Source: a virus
Lineage: Duplodnaviria; Heunggongvirae; Uroviricota; Caudoviricetes
Strand: one strand, 5' to 3'
Virus record (IMG/VR): IMGVR_UViG_3300013902_000267
Length of the DNA stretch: 64,000 bases
Shown: in pieces, positions 33 through 63,897 of the stretch
Layout of the letters: each line of letters begins with the position of its first letter
Position numbering within the stretch: position 1 is the first letter of the stretch
Position numbers and translations under genes: made by a program
Notes under the pieces: generated by a model
Database searches by the model: none
What the model saw: the letters and a program-made list of their open reading frames with translations, nothing else
Told to the model about the DNA's origin: nothing

Positions 33-103
33 TGGGATATAATGTAATGGTAACATGGAATACTCTGAATGTTCTCTTACTGGTTCGAATCCGGTTATCC
101 CAA
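33..103 (+). tRNA. tRNA-Gln (anticodon CUG)
   Basis: Hand-folded cloverleaf: acceptor TGGGATA/TATCCCA, D stem ATGT/ACAT, anticodon stem GAATA/TGTTC with loop CTCTGAA (U33, CUG, A37), T arm ACTGG-TTCGAAT-CCGGT. Confidence 0.8.
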
Positions 104-222
104 CATATTCGTAATTTTTATTTTTTATTTTTTTTATTTTTAAAGGATTTATACATAAAGAGAAAAGGTTAATAAGATTTATTTCTTATTAACCTTTATT
201 ATTTTATTTCTTAAAATAAATA

Positions 223-9657: not shown

Positions 9658-10149
9658 ATGGCAACAAATAAAAAGAATACAGTTAAGAAGTATATGCTTT
9701 CCCAAAATTTACCTTTTGGTAATTTAAAAGCAGGCATGATTTTCTCTTATGATACTATTACAAAAACTGCGGTATTTCCAAATGGACAAGAGATCTCACC
9801 ATTTGATGTAACAGATAAGAATTTCGTTAAGTCTGTCGCAGATGTAAAGTTTAATGTAGGTGATTGTGTCATTTATCATACACGATTGTATAAGATTACT
9901 GATATTAACTATGTAACAGGTCGTTGTAAGCTTTTAGAGTTTTACGCAAATAAAGAGGTTGATTTTGTAAGTCATTCTGTATTGACAGCAGCACAAGTTT
10001 ATTGGTTTGTTAATTCGTCTGGAACTGTTTCATCATCATATATTGGCAAACAACCAGATGCAGACTTATGGAGAGCAAAAACAAAGAACATGTTTAATAC
10101 CAAGGAGGAGTGTCAGAAGTATAAGAATATTGTTCTTAAAAGTAAATAA
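9658..10149 (+). CDS. hypothetical protein
   Basis: Track ORF of 163 aa. Confidence 0.55.
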   Translation: MATNKKNTVKKYMLSQNLPFGNLKAGMIFSYDTITKTAVFPNGQEISPFDVTDKNFVKSVADVKFNVGDCVIYHTRLYKITDINYVTGRCKLLEFYANKEVDFVSHSVLTAAQVYWFVNSSGTVSSSYIGKQPDADLWRAKTKNMFNTKEECQKYKNIVLKSK

Positions 10150-58229: not shown

Positions 58230-58415
58230 TCACTTTTTAATATAAAATTTCTTTATAGATGGAGATTCCTGTATTTCTTCAAATAATGAACATGGACTAA
58301 ACCAATTATGTACAGTCTTAGCATATTCCATTGCTGTCTCTTCTGAATCGCAAACTGCAGATAATTCACGATTATATTCGTCACATGTACGATAAACTTC
58401 TACAACTTCTTTCAT
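58230..58415 (-). CDS. hypothetical protein
   Basis: Track ORF of 61 aa. Confidence 0.45.
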   Translation of the reverse strand: MKEVVEVYRTCDEYNRELSAVCDSEETAMEYAKTVHNWFSPCSLFEEIQESPSIKKFYIKK

Positions 58416-58434
58416 AATTATATGTAATTTAAAA

Positions 58435-58623
58435 TTAATTATTCAAATGTATATCATTAATACATAAAGGGATAAAAATATAAAATATATTTTCTATATA
58501 TAATGATAAAATCAAATTCCATAAATTATCTATAGTTAACATATTATAATACCAAAATCCCAATATAGTTAGTACGCTACCTATGATAGAACATAAAATA
58601 GTAAATTTATATATTTGTTTCAT
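58435..58623 (-). CDS. small membrane protein
   Basis: Track ORF of 62 aa, hydrophobic. Confidence 0.45.
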   Translation of the reverse strand: MKQIYKFTILCSIIGSVLTILGFWYYNMLTIDNLWNLILSLYIENIFYIFIPLCINDIHLNN

Positions 58624-59009
58624 TCTTTAATTTTTCTACCTAAAATATTTTTTAACATCCATACCAACATATTAAATGCAACCAATAATTTATTTTCTGT
58701 ATCATCAGTCTCTTCTGAATGAACTATATTATCACCTTTCATATTTTCAAGTTTCACCGAATAACTATCAATAACCATATAATATTCTGTACTCATAGTC
58801 AAATCTTCAATACGACGGTATAAATCTTGAAGAGTATATGTATAATAACCTAATTTATACTTAACTAATTGTTCACAATAATCTTTGTGCATATTTACAT
58901 TATATTGATTTTTACCAATATAAATTAATGAAGCATCTGAAATATCAAGTCCAAGCTTCACCAATATATCCATATTATCTTTTGATAATGTAATTGTATT
59001 CTCTTTCAT
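58620..59009 (-). CDS. hypothetical protein
   Basis: Track ORF 58620-59030 trimmed to MKENTITL, because the promoter motif occupies 59031-59042. Confidence 0.5.
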   Translation of the reverse strand: MKENTITLSKDNMDILVKLGLDISDASLIYIGKNQYNVNMHKDYCEQLVKYKLGYYTYTLQDLYRRIEDLTMSTEYYMVIDSYSVKLENMKGDNIVHSEETDDTENKLLVAFNMLVWMLKNILGRKIKE

Positions 59010-59030
59010 ATATATAATTTTTATTAACAA

Positions 59031-59042
59031 TACAAAGATACA
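59031..59042 (-). promoter_or_regulatory. conserved promoter core (gene-sense TGTATCTTTGTA)
   Basis: Motif copy 22 nt upstream of ATG 59009. Confidence 0.5.
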
Positions 59043-59147
59043 TATTTTATTTTAAATAAAAAAGAGATATAACAAAATAATCTGTTATACCTCTTATAAA
59101 ATATATCTTAAAATAATAAAAAATTACATAATATATTGTAAAAGCAT

Positions 59148-60137
59148 CTATGTTTCCTCATCAGCTTTTAATTTTGGATATGCAGCTCTAAGTATCTGTA
59201 ATACACGTGTTTCTGTCATTCCATGTTCTTCTGCAACTTGCCATGTATTCTTTTCACCACGTCCATTAATACCATAGCAATCACATACAATTTCACCATC
59301 TCTTTCACCAAGAACTCTCTTTACATTATCTTCAAGTTCTCTTTCAAGATCAGCGTTATTAAGATTACTATCAGGGTCTTTAAATGTCCTATTAGCTGTT
59401 ACATCACCTAATGTTGTTTTAGAATCATCATCATCCCCGTATGATTTATCCAAACTATTTGCACGTGTATTTGCTTCCATTGTTTGTGCAAATGTTTCAT
59501 ATTTCAAATCTGGATGTTTCTTTACGAGAACATTATAAATATCATCAATATCAGGTTCATAACCATTCTTATTATATAATTGATCCTTGATACGAGCGGC
59601 TTCACGAGCAATACTACCCATATTACGGGGAACTGCCATATGTCCACCTACCTCATCAACAGCAGTCATAATTTCTCTACGAATATACCAAATAGCATAA
59701 GAAACAAAACGTACATCTTTACCTGGCAAACTTGGATCATATGTATCTGCTGCTTGCATAAGTCCTATATTTCCATATTGAATCATATCTTCCTTTGGTA
59801 TATTAATATTTTTATACTTATTGACAACAGAAATAACAAATGGAAGATTTGCGGACACCAACTTATTCTTTGCCTTTTCAATTTCTCTCTTATTATCAGA
59901 ATGTTGAATAATATCAGCAAGTTTCACTTCATCTGCATGTGATAATTGTTTTTTCTTATTAATAGCATGTAAATATGCAATAGTAGACTTTGCTGTATTT
60001 TCATCCTGTGTAATAGCAAAATCATCATGCAAATCCATATGCATTCCATTATTAGCTTCATTGAGTTTCTTTCTAATAGTCTTAGAAACATTTCTCATGA
60101 TACTTTCATACAATGTCTTCTTTTCATTTAACTTCAT
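59148..60137 (-). CDS. sigma-70 family RNA polymerase sigma factor
   Basis: Region 2 LPFVISVVNKYKN...YGNIGLMQAADTYDP...FVSYAIWYIRREI and region 4 WQVAEEHGMTETRVLQILRAAYPKL. The N-terminus carries the shared leader motif. Confidence 0.8.
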   Translation of the reverse strand: MKLNEKKTLYESIMRNVSKTIRKKLNEANNGMHMDLHDDFAITQDENTAKSTIAYLHAINKKKQLSHADEVKLADIIQHSDNKREIEKAKNKLVSANLPFVISVVNKYKNINIPKEDMIQYGNIGLMQAADTYDPSLPGKDVRFVSYAIWYIRREIMTAVDEVGGHMAVPRNMGSIAREAARIKDQLYNKNGYEPDIDDIYNVLVKKHPDLKYETFAQTMEANTRANSLDKSYGDDDDSKTTLGDVTANRTFKDPDSNLNNADLERELEDNVKRVLGERDGEIVCDCYGINGRGEKNTWQVAEEHGMTETRVLQILRAAYPKLKADEET

Positions 60138-62187: not shown

Positions 62188-62193
62188 ATATAG

Positions 62194-62266
62194 CAGGCCT
62201 GATGAGATTCGAACTCACAACAACATGATTAAAATTCGTGTGCTCTACCAATTGAGCTACAGGCCC
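62194..62266 (-). tRNA. tRNA-Lys (anticodon UUU)
   Basis: GGGCCTG acceptor, GCTC-AATTGGTA-GAGC D arm, anticodon loop ATTTTAA, and T arm GTGAG-TTCGAAT-CTCAT. Confidence 0.85.
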
Positions 62267-62322
62267 AAAGTTCTATTTTAAATTTCCACGCAATAGAACT
62301 CCGAAGATTTGTAGATCTGTGT

Positions 62323-62472
62323 TCATGGTACTTAATCTAATGCTTGTTTTTAATACTGACGTGTTAACCTCTTCACCAAATCCCCGATTAAATAATATGT
62401 AATAGAGGGGATTCATGGGTTCGAACCATGGATAATCAGTAAAATCATGATATATCACGAATGACACCATGA
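62323..62472 (-). ncRNA. tRNA-like element with closed acceptor stem and open anticodon stem (YrlA / Y-RNA-like topology)
   Basis: Minus strand reads ACTGA-TTATC-CATGG TTCGAAC CCATG-AATCCCC-(21 nt)-GGGGATT-TG-GTG AAGAGGTTAA CAC-G-TCAGT. The flanks TCATGGT (62466-62472) and ACCATGA (62323-62329) pair 25 nt out on each side. Confidence 0.55.
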
Positions 62473-62682
62473 CAATCTACGTTAACTGTAATACTAAAGC
62501 TCTTGACTCAATGCTAACGCTAAAATCTAGGATTCTGTTTATGCTAAATGTAATCAAGCTAATGCTTTAGTCAATTTACATATGTTATATATGATATTAT
62601 ATTCAAAGTCTATTATTCATATCAAAAATATTTTTAAGAAATAAATATCATAAATGAATCGATAACATTTATTATATAATAT

Positions 62683-63897
62683 ATGAATAAGAATTATAAC
62701 AAACTATATGAAGAAATGATGTCAGATATTTCAGTTATCGTTAAAAAGAAAATAAATGAAGCATATGACAATCAGCTTCTCGAAGAATATGGTGCAAAGG
62801 ATATGTTTAATGATATTATGAAAGAAGCATCAAAAGAAGGTAAAATCTTTTATAAGCATCTTAAATAGTTTATAATTTATATCATCAAAAAATTACAAGA
62901 GACAGATCAATATAAAAAAGCTGAAAAACTTATGAATGCGTATGTTCAGAAAGTACAGAAATATATTGATGAACATAAGAAGATTACTCCGAGACGTATG
63001 TTGAAAATTACTGTTGCTGTATTGACAATGTATGGAGGTGTTTCAATGATACAAGATTGTAAATAGATGATTAAATCTTTATAGGGTAATGTTGAAACTT
63101 ATGAATAGAAAGTAGAAAATGTACCGGATGAAAAGCAACAAGAAGTAATAGTAGAAGAACCTGAAGATTTTGTTGTTGAAGTTAAAGATGAAGCAAAAGA
63201 AAAATTAAGTGTCAAGAAAGTATCTACTGAAGATATTAATAATACACCTGAAAAGAAATTTAAGGAAGACAAGAATTTCAATTTTAAGTCAAGCAACGAG
63301 GCTCGCGAATTTATTAAACATCATGAGTTATGCTTACTTTACCCTTATTACGCAAAACCCGAAGAGGAAGCAAAAGGAATGGTAACTATTGGTTATGGTC
63401 ATGTTGTATTGGAATCAGATGGTGAATTATACAAGAAAGTATAGCAATTAAAAAAGAAAGGCTTAATTAAACAATCATTTGTTACAAAAAATGGTAAAAC
63501 TATTTTAAACCCTAATCATTGTAAAACCATTATAACAAAGACTGACGCAGATAAATTATTTTAGAAAGATATTAAGATTGCTGAATAGCGTGCATATAGA
63601 ACTATACAAAATATGCCTACTGATGATGATAATGTTAAATATTATATGTTATATAATCAAAAAATAAGAGATGGTTTAACATCATTATGTTATAATGCTG
63701 GATAGCTTAAACATGAAAAATATACATTCATAACAAAAGGTCTTGCAAAATCTAGATATGATTATCAAGCATAGAAAATAAATGCAGGTGATTATAATGT
63801 ATCCTTTAAATATTTCAAGAATATTAAAGATAATCCTAACAGAAGAAATGAGGAATATAAGTTATTCTTTATGAACGCAAATAAGTCTATGTCATAA
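62683..63897 (+). CDS. membrane-anchored GH24 (T4-type) lysozyme with long N-terminal extension (9 in-frame TAG)
   Basis: Track ORF 62683-62868 continues in frame through TAGs to TAA 63895-63897. TM helix ITVAVLTMYGGVSMI; HHELCLLYPYY...GMVTIGYGHVV...TKTDADKLF lysozyme motifs. Confidence 0.75.

Follow-up and report, generated by a model that had tools for sequence, protein, structure and literature searches.

A permuted tRNA-like RNA of Lak megaphages as a probable Y-RNA-like partner of a phage Ro60-like protein

What kind of RNA carries the parts of a transfer RNA (tRNA) with the 3′ half placed before the 5′ half and the acceptor stem closed by a loop? The question is raised by an element on the minus strand of a 64,000-nucleotide stretch of Caudoviricetes DNA (IMG/VR record IMGVR_UViG_3300013902_000267; the whole stretch is referred to here as the window), where it lies next to a tRNA cluster. 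Ro60–Y RNA particles are RNA quality-control machines, and searches beside annotated TROVE genes brought to light the known Y RNAs of bacteria and phages. A sequence-only reading of the locus had proposed a YrlA-type Y RNA. The analysis presented here points to positions 62574-62270 (minus strand) as a phage Y-RNA-like transcript that is made with two tRNAs and is the partner of a phage Ro60-like protein, a reading to which a probability of about two in three is assigned. That the element works like a YrlA-type Y RNA is supported; that it is YrlA is not supported. Between 61800 and 63000, the window is 100% identical to Prevotella megaphage Lak-B7 (MK250026.1), with window position 1 at genome position 139512; the same interval is 98.8–99.9% identical to other Lak-B genomes and ~82% identical to Lak-A and Lak-C.

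The core of the element, 62440-62355 on the minus strand, is a circularly permuted cloverleaf, and covariation shows that the structure is real. Its letters run exactly as the sequence-only reading wrote them. The 3′ half (62440-62407) comprises the 3′ strand of the anticodon stem, ACTGA (62440-62436), a variable region, TTATC, a T arm, CATGG-TTCGAAC-CCATG (62430-62414), and the 3′ strand of the acceptor stem, AATCCCC (62413-62407). The acceptor stem is closed by an AU-rich linker of 21 nt (62406-62386), which starts with TCTA, i.e., U73 followed by a conserved C. The 5′ half (62385-62355) then supplies the acceptor 5′ strand, GGGGATT (62385-62379), U8 and G9 (TG), a D arm, GTG-AAGAGGTTAA-CAC (62376-62361), G26, and the 5′ strand of the anticodon stem, TCAGT (62359-62355). 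The bases that make tertiary contacts in tRNA are in place (U8, A14, G15/C48, G18G19, A21, G53-C61, T54-T55-C56, and A58).

Pattern scans of viral and metagenome contigs returned about 84 homologous loci, which belong to Lak-A, Lak-B, and Lak-C, to many human-gut phage contigs of ~135–190 kb, and to more divergent members such as L006 and L062. Compensatory changes in Lak-A and Lak-C convert the T stem from CATGG/CCATG to ACGGG/CCCGT and the acceptor stem from GGGGATT/AATCCCC to GGGCGAT/ATTGCCC. Across 16 distinct cores, 99.4% of the stem cells pair and 14 of the 20 pairs have changed on both sides; this degree of pairing was reached in 0/500 shuffles, and slid controls were 30–57% paired. For column register, one variable-region base was deleted from five sequences with a 6-nt variable region. 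The covarying stems are the anticodon-like, T, and acceptor stems, while the D stem is invariant and thus uninformative, neither for nor against pairing. Stems were counted on register-fixed segments because a whole-locus MAFFT alignment misaligned the variable flanks, such that RNAalifold recovered the T and acceptor stems only, plus a spurious pairing with the downstream tRNA. The tRNA hallmarks and the inverted topology that had been read from the letters are hence borne out, with every base in place and covariation on the 16 cores.

Searched with a covariance model of the core (R1), the entire 550-kb Lak-B7 genome yields a single copy, which scores 71.4 bits; the remaining R1 matches in it are junctions between adjacent tRNA genes. 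The family did not turn up in 185,579 representative bacterial and archaeal genomes searched with the same pattern, all 15 matches being due to chance; none has the upstream domain or the D arm of the family. The D arm, TGGTGAAGNGGTTAACAC, is nearly invariant across the RNA family and identical to the D arm of ordinary phage tRNA-His genes. Every variant has a perfect acceptor stem of 7 bp, after which come the discriminator (U, once G) and a conserved C. The linker, on the other hand, can be as short as 18 nt or as long as 131 nt, and its sequence is unconserved save for a leading N-C-W-A; a C-W-A trailer is also found 3′ of ordinary tRNAs in phages of the family. In Lak, the linker is AU-rich, unstructured, and 21–27 nt long; in the ~180-kb gut phages (L017, L021, L022, and similar), it spans 59–131 nt and contains a long hairpin (e.g., AAAGGTGAGA...TCTCACCTTT).

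The window yields only two calls with ARAGORN, a tRNA-Gln (33-104, plus strand) and a tRNA-Lys (62193-62266, minus strand), and the permuted element at 62440-62355 is not called. Neither is it called by the Rfam tRNA and tmRNA_permuted models; the tRNA model reaches at most 15.3 bits on the element, with a mis-registered span. A canonical tRNA, with a contiguous cloverleaf and an anticodon loop, is ruled out by the silence of ARAGORN and this low score. At the Rfam gathering thresholds and at E ≤ 10, the YrlA, transfer-messenger RNA (tmRNA), intron, ribozyme, GOLLD, and ROOL models are unmatched on the element. Two checks put forward with the sequence-only reading came back negative. The Rfam YrlA model (RF02553, gathering score 69 bits) finds nothing on 62311-62480 even at E ≤ 10, its sole match being the neighboring tRNA-Lys (19.4 bits), and the single-sequence fold of 62323-62472 is not significant against shuffles (z = −1.3). 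The structural evidence is therefore comparative, not thermodynamic. The third, covariance support in related genomes, was found both in the core (14/20 pairs changed on both sides) and in the terminal stem described below (11/13). The class to which such RNAs belong is missing from Rfam.

The outer helix that the sequence-only reading had placed exactly 25 nt outside each side of the core, TCATGGT (62472-62466) with ACCATGA (62329-62323), is confirmed by a compensatory change to TCATAGT/ACTATGA in Lak-A and Lak-C. It forms the inner segment (S3) of a terminal stem that is longer (~15 bp), bulged, and covarying. The 5′ strand of this stem (62480-62466, minus strand) consists of S1, GTAGAT (62480-62475), S2, TGT (62474-62472), and S3, CATGGT (62471-62466). 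The 3′ strand (62329-62311) returns S3 as ACCATG (62329-62324), followed by an AAC bulge (62323-62321), S2 as ACA (62320-62318), a G, and S1 as ATCTAC (62316-62311). S1, which is GTAGAT/ATCTAC in Lak, appears elsewhere as CTCAT/ATGAG, GTGAGA/TCTCAC, GCAGAA/TTCTGC, or GCAAA/TTTGC, and S2 as GT/AC, AC/GT, TC/GA, or CC/GG. In 13 sequences, 100% of the cells pair and 11 of the 13 pairs show a double-sided change, a count to be read with the caveat that S3 and S1 were located partly by complementarity and S2 by position alone. The AAC bulge is constant in the variants examined except for three: it is AAA in L006 and AAT in L067, and L056/L057 are without this part of the stem. In L056 and L057, a deletion takes the 3′ strand of S3 together with the bulge, and the DUF7873 gene is truncated as well; these loci may be degenerate copies or assembly variants.

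The terminal stem is connected to the tRNA-like domain through a junction. On the 5′ side lies a hairpin, H5, with the sequence TCGTGA-TATA-TCATGA (62460-62445, minus strand). Most representatives have a hairpin in this position, although with different sequences (ATTCG/CGAAT in L008 and ATAATC/GATTAT in the 180-kb phages), all of which are single-sequence predictions only. The 3′ junction (62354-62330) is 25 nt of single strand and contains, at 62347-62337, the motif ACAAGCATTAG. Its core in the window is ACAAGCAUUAG, across the family it conforms to A(C/A)A(A)GC(A/T)TTAGC as a consensus, and in L019 and L022 the motif reads ACAGCATTAGC (core ACAGCAUUAGC). The string AAGCATTAG occurs in the window at 62337-62345 and at 62559-62567.

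The second of these occurrences falls in an upstream Y-like stem-loop of ~70 nt, module 1 (62574-62503, minus strand), the permuted domain with its terminal stem being module 2. The stem of module 1 is formed by TTGACT (62574-62569) and AGTCAA (62508-62503), and directly after its 5′ strand stands the motif AAAGCATTAGC (62568-62558; shorter form, AAAGCAUUAGC). The loop contains three or four TTAGC repeats and TCCTAGA. Module 1 is nearly invariant between Lak-A and Lak-B, more so than the tRNA-like part, and its anchors are kept in 13/13 representatives. The stem is without variation and hence without covariation support. The possibility that the opposite strand of the conserved upstream ~100 nt is coding, with TAG read as Gln, was considered and ruled out, as a 1-nt indel between the clades breaks the frame; this indel argues against coding of module 1 on either strand. 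Module 1 may be a second Y-like RNA.

On the other side of module 2, a 3′ hairpin, GTTCTATT-GCGTGGAAATTTAA-AATAGAAC (62299-62270, minus strand), lies between the Y-like RNA and tRNA-Lys. It shows a compensatory change in Lak-A (TC/GA to CT/AG), and a hairpin is found at the equivalent place in other clades. Its loop, GCGTGGAAATTTAA, is conserved and no T tract follows; it is therefore no obvious terminator. The element is thus larger than first described, comprising module 1, the tRNA-like module, and the 3′ hairpin. The sequence-only reading had captured the core and S3 and had missed the upstream stem-loop, the full bulged terminal stem, and the hairpins on either side.

A sigma-70-like promoter candidate, TTGATA-18-TATAAT (62625-62596, minus strand), matches the consensus at 11/12 positions, the consensus match being its only evidence; it lies ~20 nt upstream of the conserved RNA region, and a similar TATATT is in the same place in Lak-A. 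The rest of the probable transcription unit (62266-62033) holds tRNA-Lys(UUU) (62266-62194), a type-II tRNA (62187-62092), and a terminator-like hairpin (62064-62033). The promoter candidate and the terminator-like hairpin bracket the RNA and the two tRNAs, with which module 1, the tRNA-like module, and the 3′ hairpin are apparently co-transcribed. The type-II tRNA has a long variable arm, scores 45 bits with the Rfam tRNA model, and was missed by ARAGORN; its anticodon loop is UAUGAUG, with A in place of the expected U33.

The protein partner was approached through the gene neighborhood of the relatives. Upstream sequence of at least 2.8 kb was available for 52 family loci, and in 42 of them the 600-aa protein, DUF7873, RNA, and tRNAs follow one another in this order on one strand. 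The remaining ten are L006 and nine loci of Lak type, i.e., all non-Lak loci except L006 conform. In these 42 loci, which belong to ~180-kb phages, the end of the 600-aa gene lies ~0.75–0.85 kb from the RNA on the same strand. The 600-aa protein matches Pfam DUF7788, weakly matches DUF2828, also matches phrog_850 (‘RNA-binding protein’, E = 1e-29), and is unmatched by Pfam TROVE. Its AlphaFold model (predicted local distance difference test score (pLDDT) 73.2) has Ro60 as the top six matches in the PDB (1yvr, 2i91, 1yvp, 9nep, and 9nfa), over ~530–575 columns with E values of 1e-6 to 1e-5 and template modeling (TM) scores of 0.34–0.43; vWA/MIDAS domains come next in the ranking. In the ~180-kb phages, the Ro-like gene is always separated from the RNA by the gene for the DUF7873 protein (263 aa; L017 3466-4257, minus strand), and the AlphaFold model of this protein (pLDDT 78.5) gives no convincing PDB match and no recognizable fold. 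A Lak-B7 homolog of DUF7873, 60% identical, is encoded elsewhere (genome 36494-37297, minus strand).

In Lak, the gene upstream of the RNA is a short divergent open reading frame (ORF) of 61 aa on the opposite strand (62683-62868, plus strand), and Lak therefore lacks the operon link that the gut phages show with DUF7873 and the Ro-like gene. With tblastn and a narrow hidden Markov model (HMM) of the 600-aa protein, no homolog was found in the window and the next 50 kb, nor in the whole Lak-B7 genome, which was assembled from 50-kb pieces. A broad HMM built from 106 diverse homologs, however, retrieved a 455-aa homolog at genome positions 58253-59617 (minus strand). This protein passes both Pfam cut-offs (DUF2828, 42.5 bits; DUF7788, 40.1 bits), matches phrog_850 with E = 2.8e-44, and is found in 15/15 Lak genomes at 80–100% identity. 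It aligns over its full length with proteins of cluster L mycobacteriophages annotated as ‘Ro-like RNA binding protein’. Hence, the earlier statement that no rsr gene is visible holds for the window, whereas the genome does encode a Ro60-like protein, a DUF2828/DUF7788 protein rather than a canonical TROVE one, 143 kb away on the same strand. The link of the Ro-like protein to Ro60 is one of fold, PHROG family, and annotators’ naming only.

Homologs of the Lak Ro-like protein occur in 607 phage records, including FelixO1-like and KVP40-like phages, Campylobacter and Staphylococcus phages, and the cluster L mycobacteriophages. In the FelixO1-like Shigella phage Sf14, the DUF2828 gene heads the tRNA cluster, and 1.1 kb downstream, within the cluster, lies a tRNA-like RNA with a closed acceptor stem that R1 matches at 26.5 bits (E = 4e-8). 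The terminal stem of this RNA is AGACCG/CGGUCU, with UUUACAGCAAAC after the 5′ strand, and a simpler stem-loop with AAAUACAGCAAGC precedes it. Both RNAs, each with an ACAGCAA motif, fall in an unannotated 450-nt gap of the tRNA cluster (L110 5880-6110, plus strand). Mycobacterium phage Faith1 has three tandem stem-loops (L128 5420-5690, plus strand) after its DUF2828/DUF7788 ‘Ro-like’ gene 55, each with (U)AACAGCAA after the 5′ strand, and a terminator then follows. Of these, the middle stem-loop is tRNA-like and gives the locus its best Rfam YrlA match, whose 21.7 bits fall far short of the gathering score (69). In Leptolyngbya phage Lbo-JY46 (L107 6660-7010, plus strand), the DUF2828 gene is followed by a tandem array of five stem-loops with UUACAGCAAAU, of which one has a T arm; three match Rfam Dicty_Class_I_RNA just below its threshold (best, 39.3 bits vs. 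41.5).

In all three phages, (U)ACAGCAA stands beside the 5′ strand of the stem. The motif of module 1 is placed in the same way, and the 3′ junction motif of module 2 resembles (U)ACAGCAA. A further stem-loop, AGAGUC-AAUACAGCAAAC-42 nt-GACUCU, lies in Lak itself ~100 nt upstream of the Ro-like gene (L105 ~9720-9785, minus strand; Lak-B7 ~59720-59785); its stem and motif are kept in Lak-A1 (L129), while the loop has diverged. This stem-loop is probably a second Y-like RNA of the Lak phages. DUF2828 genes are also found near RNA-repair genes, namely RtcB in Listeria phage LMSP-25, and an RNA ligase and a CCA-adding enzyme in Serratia phage BF. In LMSP-25, the RtcB gene (‘tRNA splicing ligase’) is 1.3 kb downstream of the DUF2828 gene, and a match to ROOL (88.5 bits vs. 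a gathering score of 99.1, E = 1e-16; L109 1588-2139, plus strand) lies ~1 kb upstream of it.

YrlA is built from a T arm, a closed acceptor-like stem, a D arm, and a terminal helix made of its two ends (PMC4201824). The order of parts in the element, from terminal stem through T arm, closed acceptor-like stem, and D arm back to terminal stem, is the same as in YrlA (RF02553; Chen et al. 2014, PMC4201824). Both RNAs keep the tRNA tertiary nucleotides, including the G15-C48 Levitt pair, and in both cases a second, simpler Y-like stem-loop is encoded alongside. The apparent co-transcription with tRNAs recalls Yrn1/Yrn2 of D. radiodurans, which are co-transcribed with a tRNA. The 7-bp acceptor stem is shared with the YrlA of M. 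smegmatis, in which it makes the RNA a substrate for RNase P and CCA addition. The element differs from YrlA in retaining a proper 5-bp anticodon-like stem and a 5–6-nt variable region, in a linker of 18–131 nt in place of a few nucleotides, and in its predicted partner, a DUF2828/DUF7788 protein instead of a Pfam TROVE protein. A TROVE gene on the same strand within ~4 kb, as expected for YrlA, is not found in Lak; in the ~180-kb phages, the Ro-like DUF2828/DUF7788 gene is within this distance, ~0.8 kb upstream. Tested against the features of YrlA, the element thus shows the tRNA-like order and tertiary nucleotides as well as the terminal stem (S1, S2, bulge, and S3), and lacks the Rfam match, the GNCGAA motif, and the TROVE gene nearby. 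Of the original YrlA proposal, it is the architecture and, at the level of the protein family, the Ro60-like partner that stand; the model match, the GNCGAAN0-1G motif, the canonical TROVE/Rsr partner, and the <4 kb proximity do not.

The closest phage precedent is phiRo60 with Yrl1/Yrl2 of Thermus phage phiLo, in which, as in Lak, the phage encodes both a Ro60-fold protein and Y-like RNAs, and for which a phage Ro60–Yrl–PNPase complex has been described (PMC12135203). The Yrls of phiLo adjoin phiRo60, and their proposed role, engaging the host PNPase or RNA-decay machinery, is the one proposed here for the element (PMC12135203). In contrast, phiRo60 is a canonical Ro60 homolog, and the Yrls carry a CGAA motif and have no tRNA-like domain described (PMC12135203), while in Lak the RNA would be bound by a DUF2828/DUF7788 protein.

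From the observed structure, conservation, and gene neighborhood, we infer how the protein may bind the RNA, how the RNA may be processed, and which downstream effector it may meet, on the basis of what is known of Ro60–Y RNA particles (PMC4201824, PMC12135203, and PMC7824862). Module 1 would be a plain stem-loop with its AAAGCAUUAGC motif beside the stem. Module 2 would be the tRNA mimic, in which the T arm, the D arm, and the 7-bp acceptor stem are predicted to fold as in tRNA, the variable linker closing the acceptor stem and the loopless anticodon stem leading through the junction into the ~15-bp bulged end helix. The Ro60-like protein (DUF2828/DUF7788, with a ring and a vWA domain; Lak-B7 58253-59617) is suggested to bind the RNA at its terminal stem and junction motif, whereupon the end shaped like a tRNA would be presented to tRNA-recognizing or RNA-decay enzymes. 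The scheme agrees with the way in which bacterial and phage Ro60–Y RNA particles tether PNPase. The RNA is probably cut by RNase P and then CCA-tailed to give a two-piece RNA, a maturation predicted from the invariant 7-bp stem, the discriminator followed by C, and the dispensable linker. The YrlA of M. smegmatis with its 7-bp acceptor stem is cleaved by RNase P and has CCA added to it in vivo (PMC4201824).

Several observations weigh against a Ro60-type partnership. The element is unmatched by the Rfam YrlA model, and the Rsr-binding motif GNCGAAN0-1G is absent from 62480-62441 and from all representatives, where A(C/A)AGC(A/U)UUAG is found instead. The junction motif of the window, ACAAGCAUUAG, is only an approximate match to ACAGCAA, and its place in module 2 is the 3′ side of the junction, as opposed to the 5′ side in Sf14 and Faith1. 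A sequence profile of the Ro-like protein retrieves no Ro60 chain from the PDB, and the TM scores of the fold match are modest. The Lak-B7 gene is on the same strand as the RNA at a distance of 143 kb, and the protein–RNA link in Lak therefore rests on the relatives and on co-occurrence. The ~180-kb phage loci are, moreover, closely interrelated and represent few independent events. Finally, DUF2828 genes are often beside tRNA clusters anyway, so adjacency could reflect a shared ‘tRNA neighborhood’ instead of a specific partnership.

The last point leads to the alternative that fares best, a tRNA mimic that works independently of Ro: a decoy or sponge for a tRNA-binding factor (e.g., a tRNA-modifying enzyme, the CCA-adding enzyme, or a tRNA-targeting defense nuclease), or a processing or stability element heading the tRNA operon. 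In every clade, the RNA opens a tRNA transcription unit; the Ro-like gene of Lak is far from it; and L006 has the RNA and no Ro-like gene within 8.8 kb upstream. The invariant D arm, shared with phage tRNA-His genes, likewise suggests recognition by a tRNA-specific factor. However, such a mimic would leave the long, covarying, bulged terminal stem, the junction motif, and the extra stem-loop module, all features of Y RNAs, unexplained. An RNA without an anticodon loop would also be a poor decoy for anticodon nucleases, and tRNA-like RNAs recur beside DUF2828 genes in unrelated phages. On balance, a Ro-independent mimic is considered unlikely, and a Y-RNA-like transcript partnered by the phage Ro60-like protein is preferred.

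The order of 3′ half, linker, and 5′ half, together with a perfect tRNA core and a variable, dispensable linker, is also what a true circularly permuted tRNA gene would show, in which the ends of the RNA are joined (e.g., by a phage RNA ligase) and RNase P and 3′ processing release a chargeable tRNA. In the permuted tRNA genes of Cyanidioschyzon merolae and other algae, the 3′ half is similarly upstream of the 5′ half and an intervening sequence joins the acceptor strands. In Lak-B, the seven nucleotides after TCAGT, AUUAAAA, can be read as an anticodon loop with UAA. Nevertheless, this candidate loop is not conserved, being AUAUUUA in Lak-A and wholly different in L006, L008, and L010, and no partition of the flanks gives U33 and a purine at position 37 across the family. 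What the flanks do form is a stem and junction of more than 50 nt, conserved and covarying. In the algal genes, an intact anticodon, D, or T loop is restored via a bulge-helix-bulge junction and a circular intermediate, while the open end of the element is a long conserved helix that leaves no loop to restore, in a phage with a bacterial host. No bulge-helix-bulge motif was found, nor any group I intron signal at E ≤ 10, and to our knowledge bacteria lack the splicing endonuclease that the algal permuted tRNAs use. A functional permuted tRNA is accordingly judged very improbable. Circularization by a permuted group I intron–exon layout or by flanking self-cleaving ribozymes was considered separately and ruled out, given no intron or ribozyme signal and the covarying flank helix.

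Equally improbable is a divergent two-piece (permuted) tmRNA with a short tag in the 3′ junction, GCN-UUA-NNN-stop, i.e., Ala-Leu-X-stop. The junction reads ALD*, ALV*, ALI*, or ALA*, with UAA/UGA variation at the stop position, and it contains GCUUUAGCA, with which the E. coli tag-coding sequence likewise ends. The topology also fits, since in permuted ssrA the acceptor piece comes first and is followed by a segment removed by tRNA processing (PMC11915505). Two-piece tmRNA (RF04321, RF01849-51; PMC11915505) further shares with the element the permuted tRNA-like domain, a long helix replacing the anticodon arm, and an intervening segment probably removed by tRNA-processing enzymes. On the other hand, G3:U70 is present in no member, pair 3-70 being G-C or C-G in 16/16 sequences; the D arm is complete rather than reduced; there is no pseudoknot region; and the tag frame is broken or stopless in L019, L032, and L095. 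ARAGORN finds no tmRNA, and the Rfam tmRNA, tmRNA_permuted, alpha, beta, and cyano tmRNA models have zero matches on the element. Module 1, which is non-coding, has three to four further copies of the motif, which is therefore an RNA motif, not a string of codons. That the region simply encodes a protein, its RNA-like features being incidental, is hardly credible: an ATG-initiated 65-codon ORF (62273-62470, minus strand, 65 aa) is present, yet its frame is not conserved across the family, relatives differ by non-triplet length changes (linkers of 18–131 nt and 1-nt indels), and substitutions are paired across stems instead of falling at third codon positions, in keeping with the earlier judgment that this ORF is spurious.

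More tentatively than the assignment of the element itself, and at something short of even odds, the element is proposed to represent, in megaphages, a widespread and as yet undescribed class of phage Y RNAs that would be partnered by DUF2828/DUF7788 proteins (phrog_850) instead of Rsr. In this class, an ACAGCAA-type motif would replace GNCGAA, and the branch found in Lak and the gut phages would be a two-piece tRNA mimic matured by RNase P and CCA addition and possibly aminoacylated. A literature search of incomplete coverage returned genome announcements and unrelated plant papers and no paper on RNA partners of DUF2828-type proteins, and novelty is unproven. A second and much commoner phage protein family than TROVE, annotated only as ‘RNA-binding protein’ or ‘Ro-like’, appears to bring its own tRNA-shaped and stem-loop RNAs, which lie outside Rfam. 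The annotation of tRNA and non-coding RNA in huge phages also overlooks permuted tRNA-like genes. If the proposal is true, a protein family that hundreds of well-studied phages carry would gain a function and an RNA ligand. It would also provide a natural example of a two-piece tRNA mimic made by the tRNA-processing machinery, and it would explain the conserved non-coding region that heads the tRNA operon of Lak megaphages and of abundant human-gut phages.

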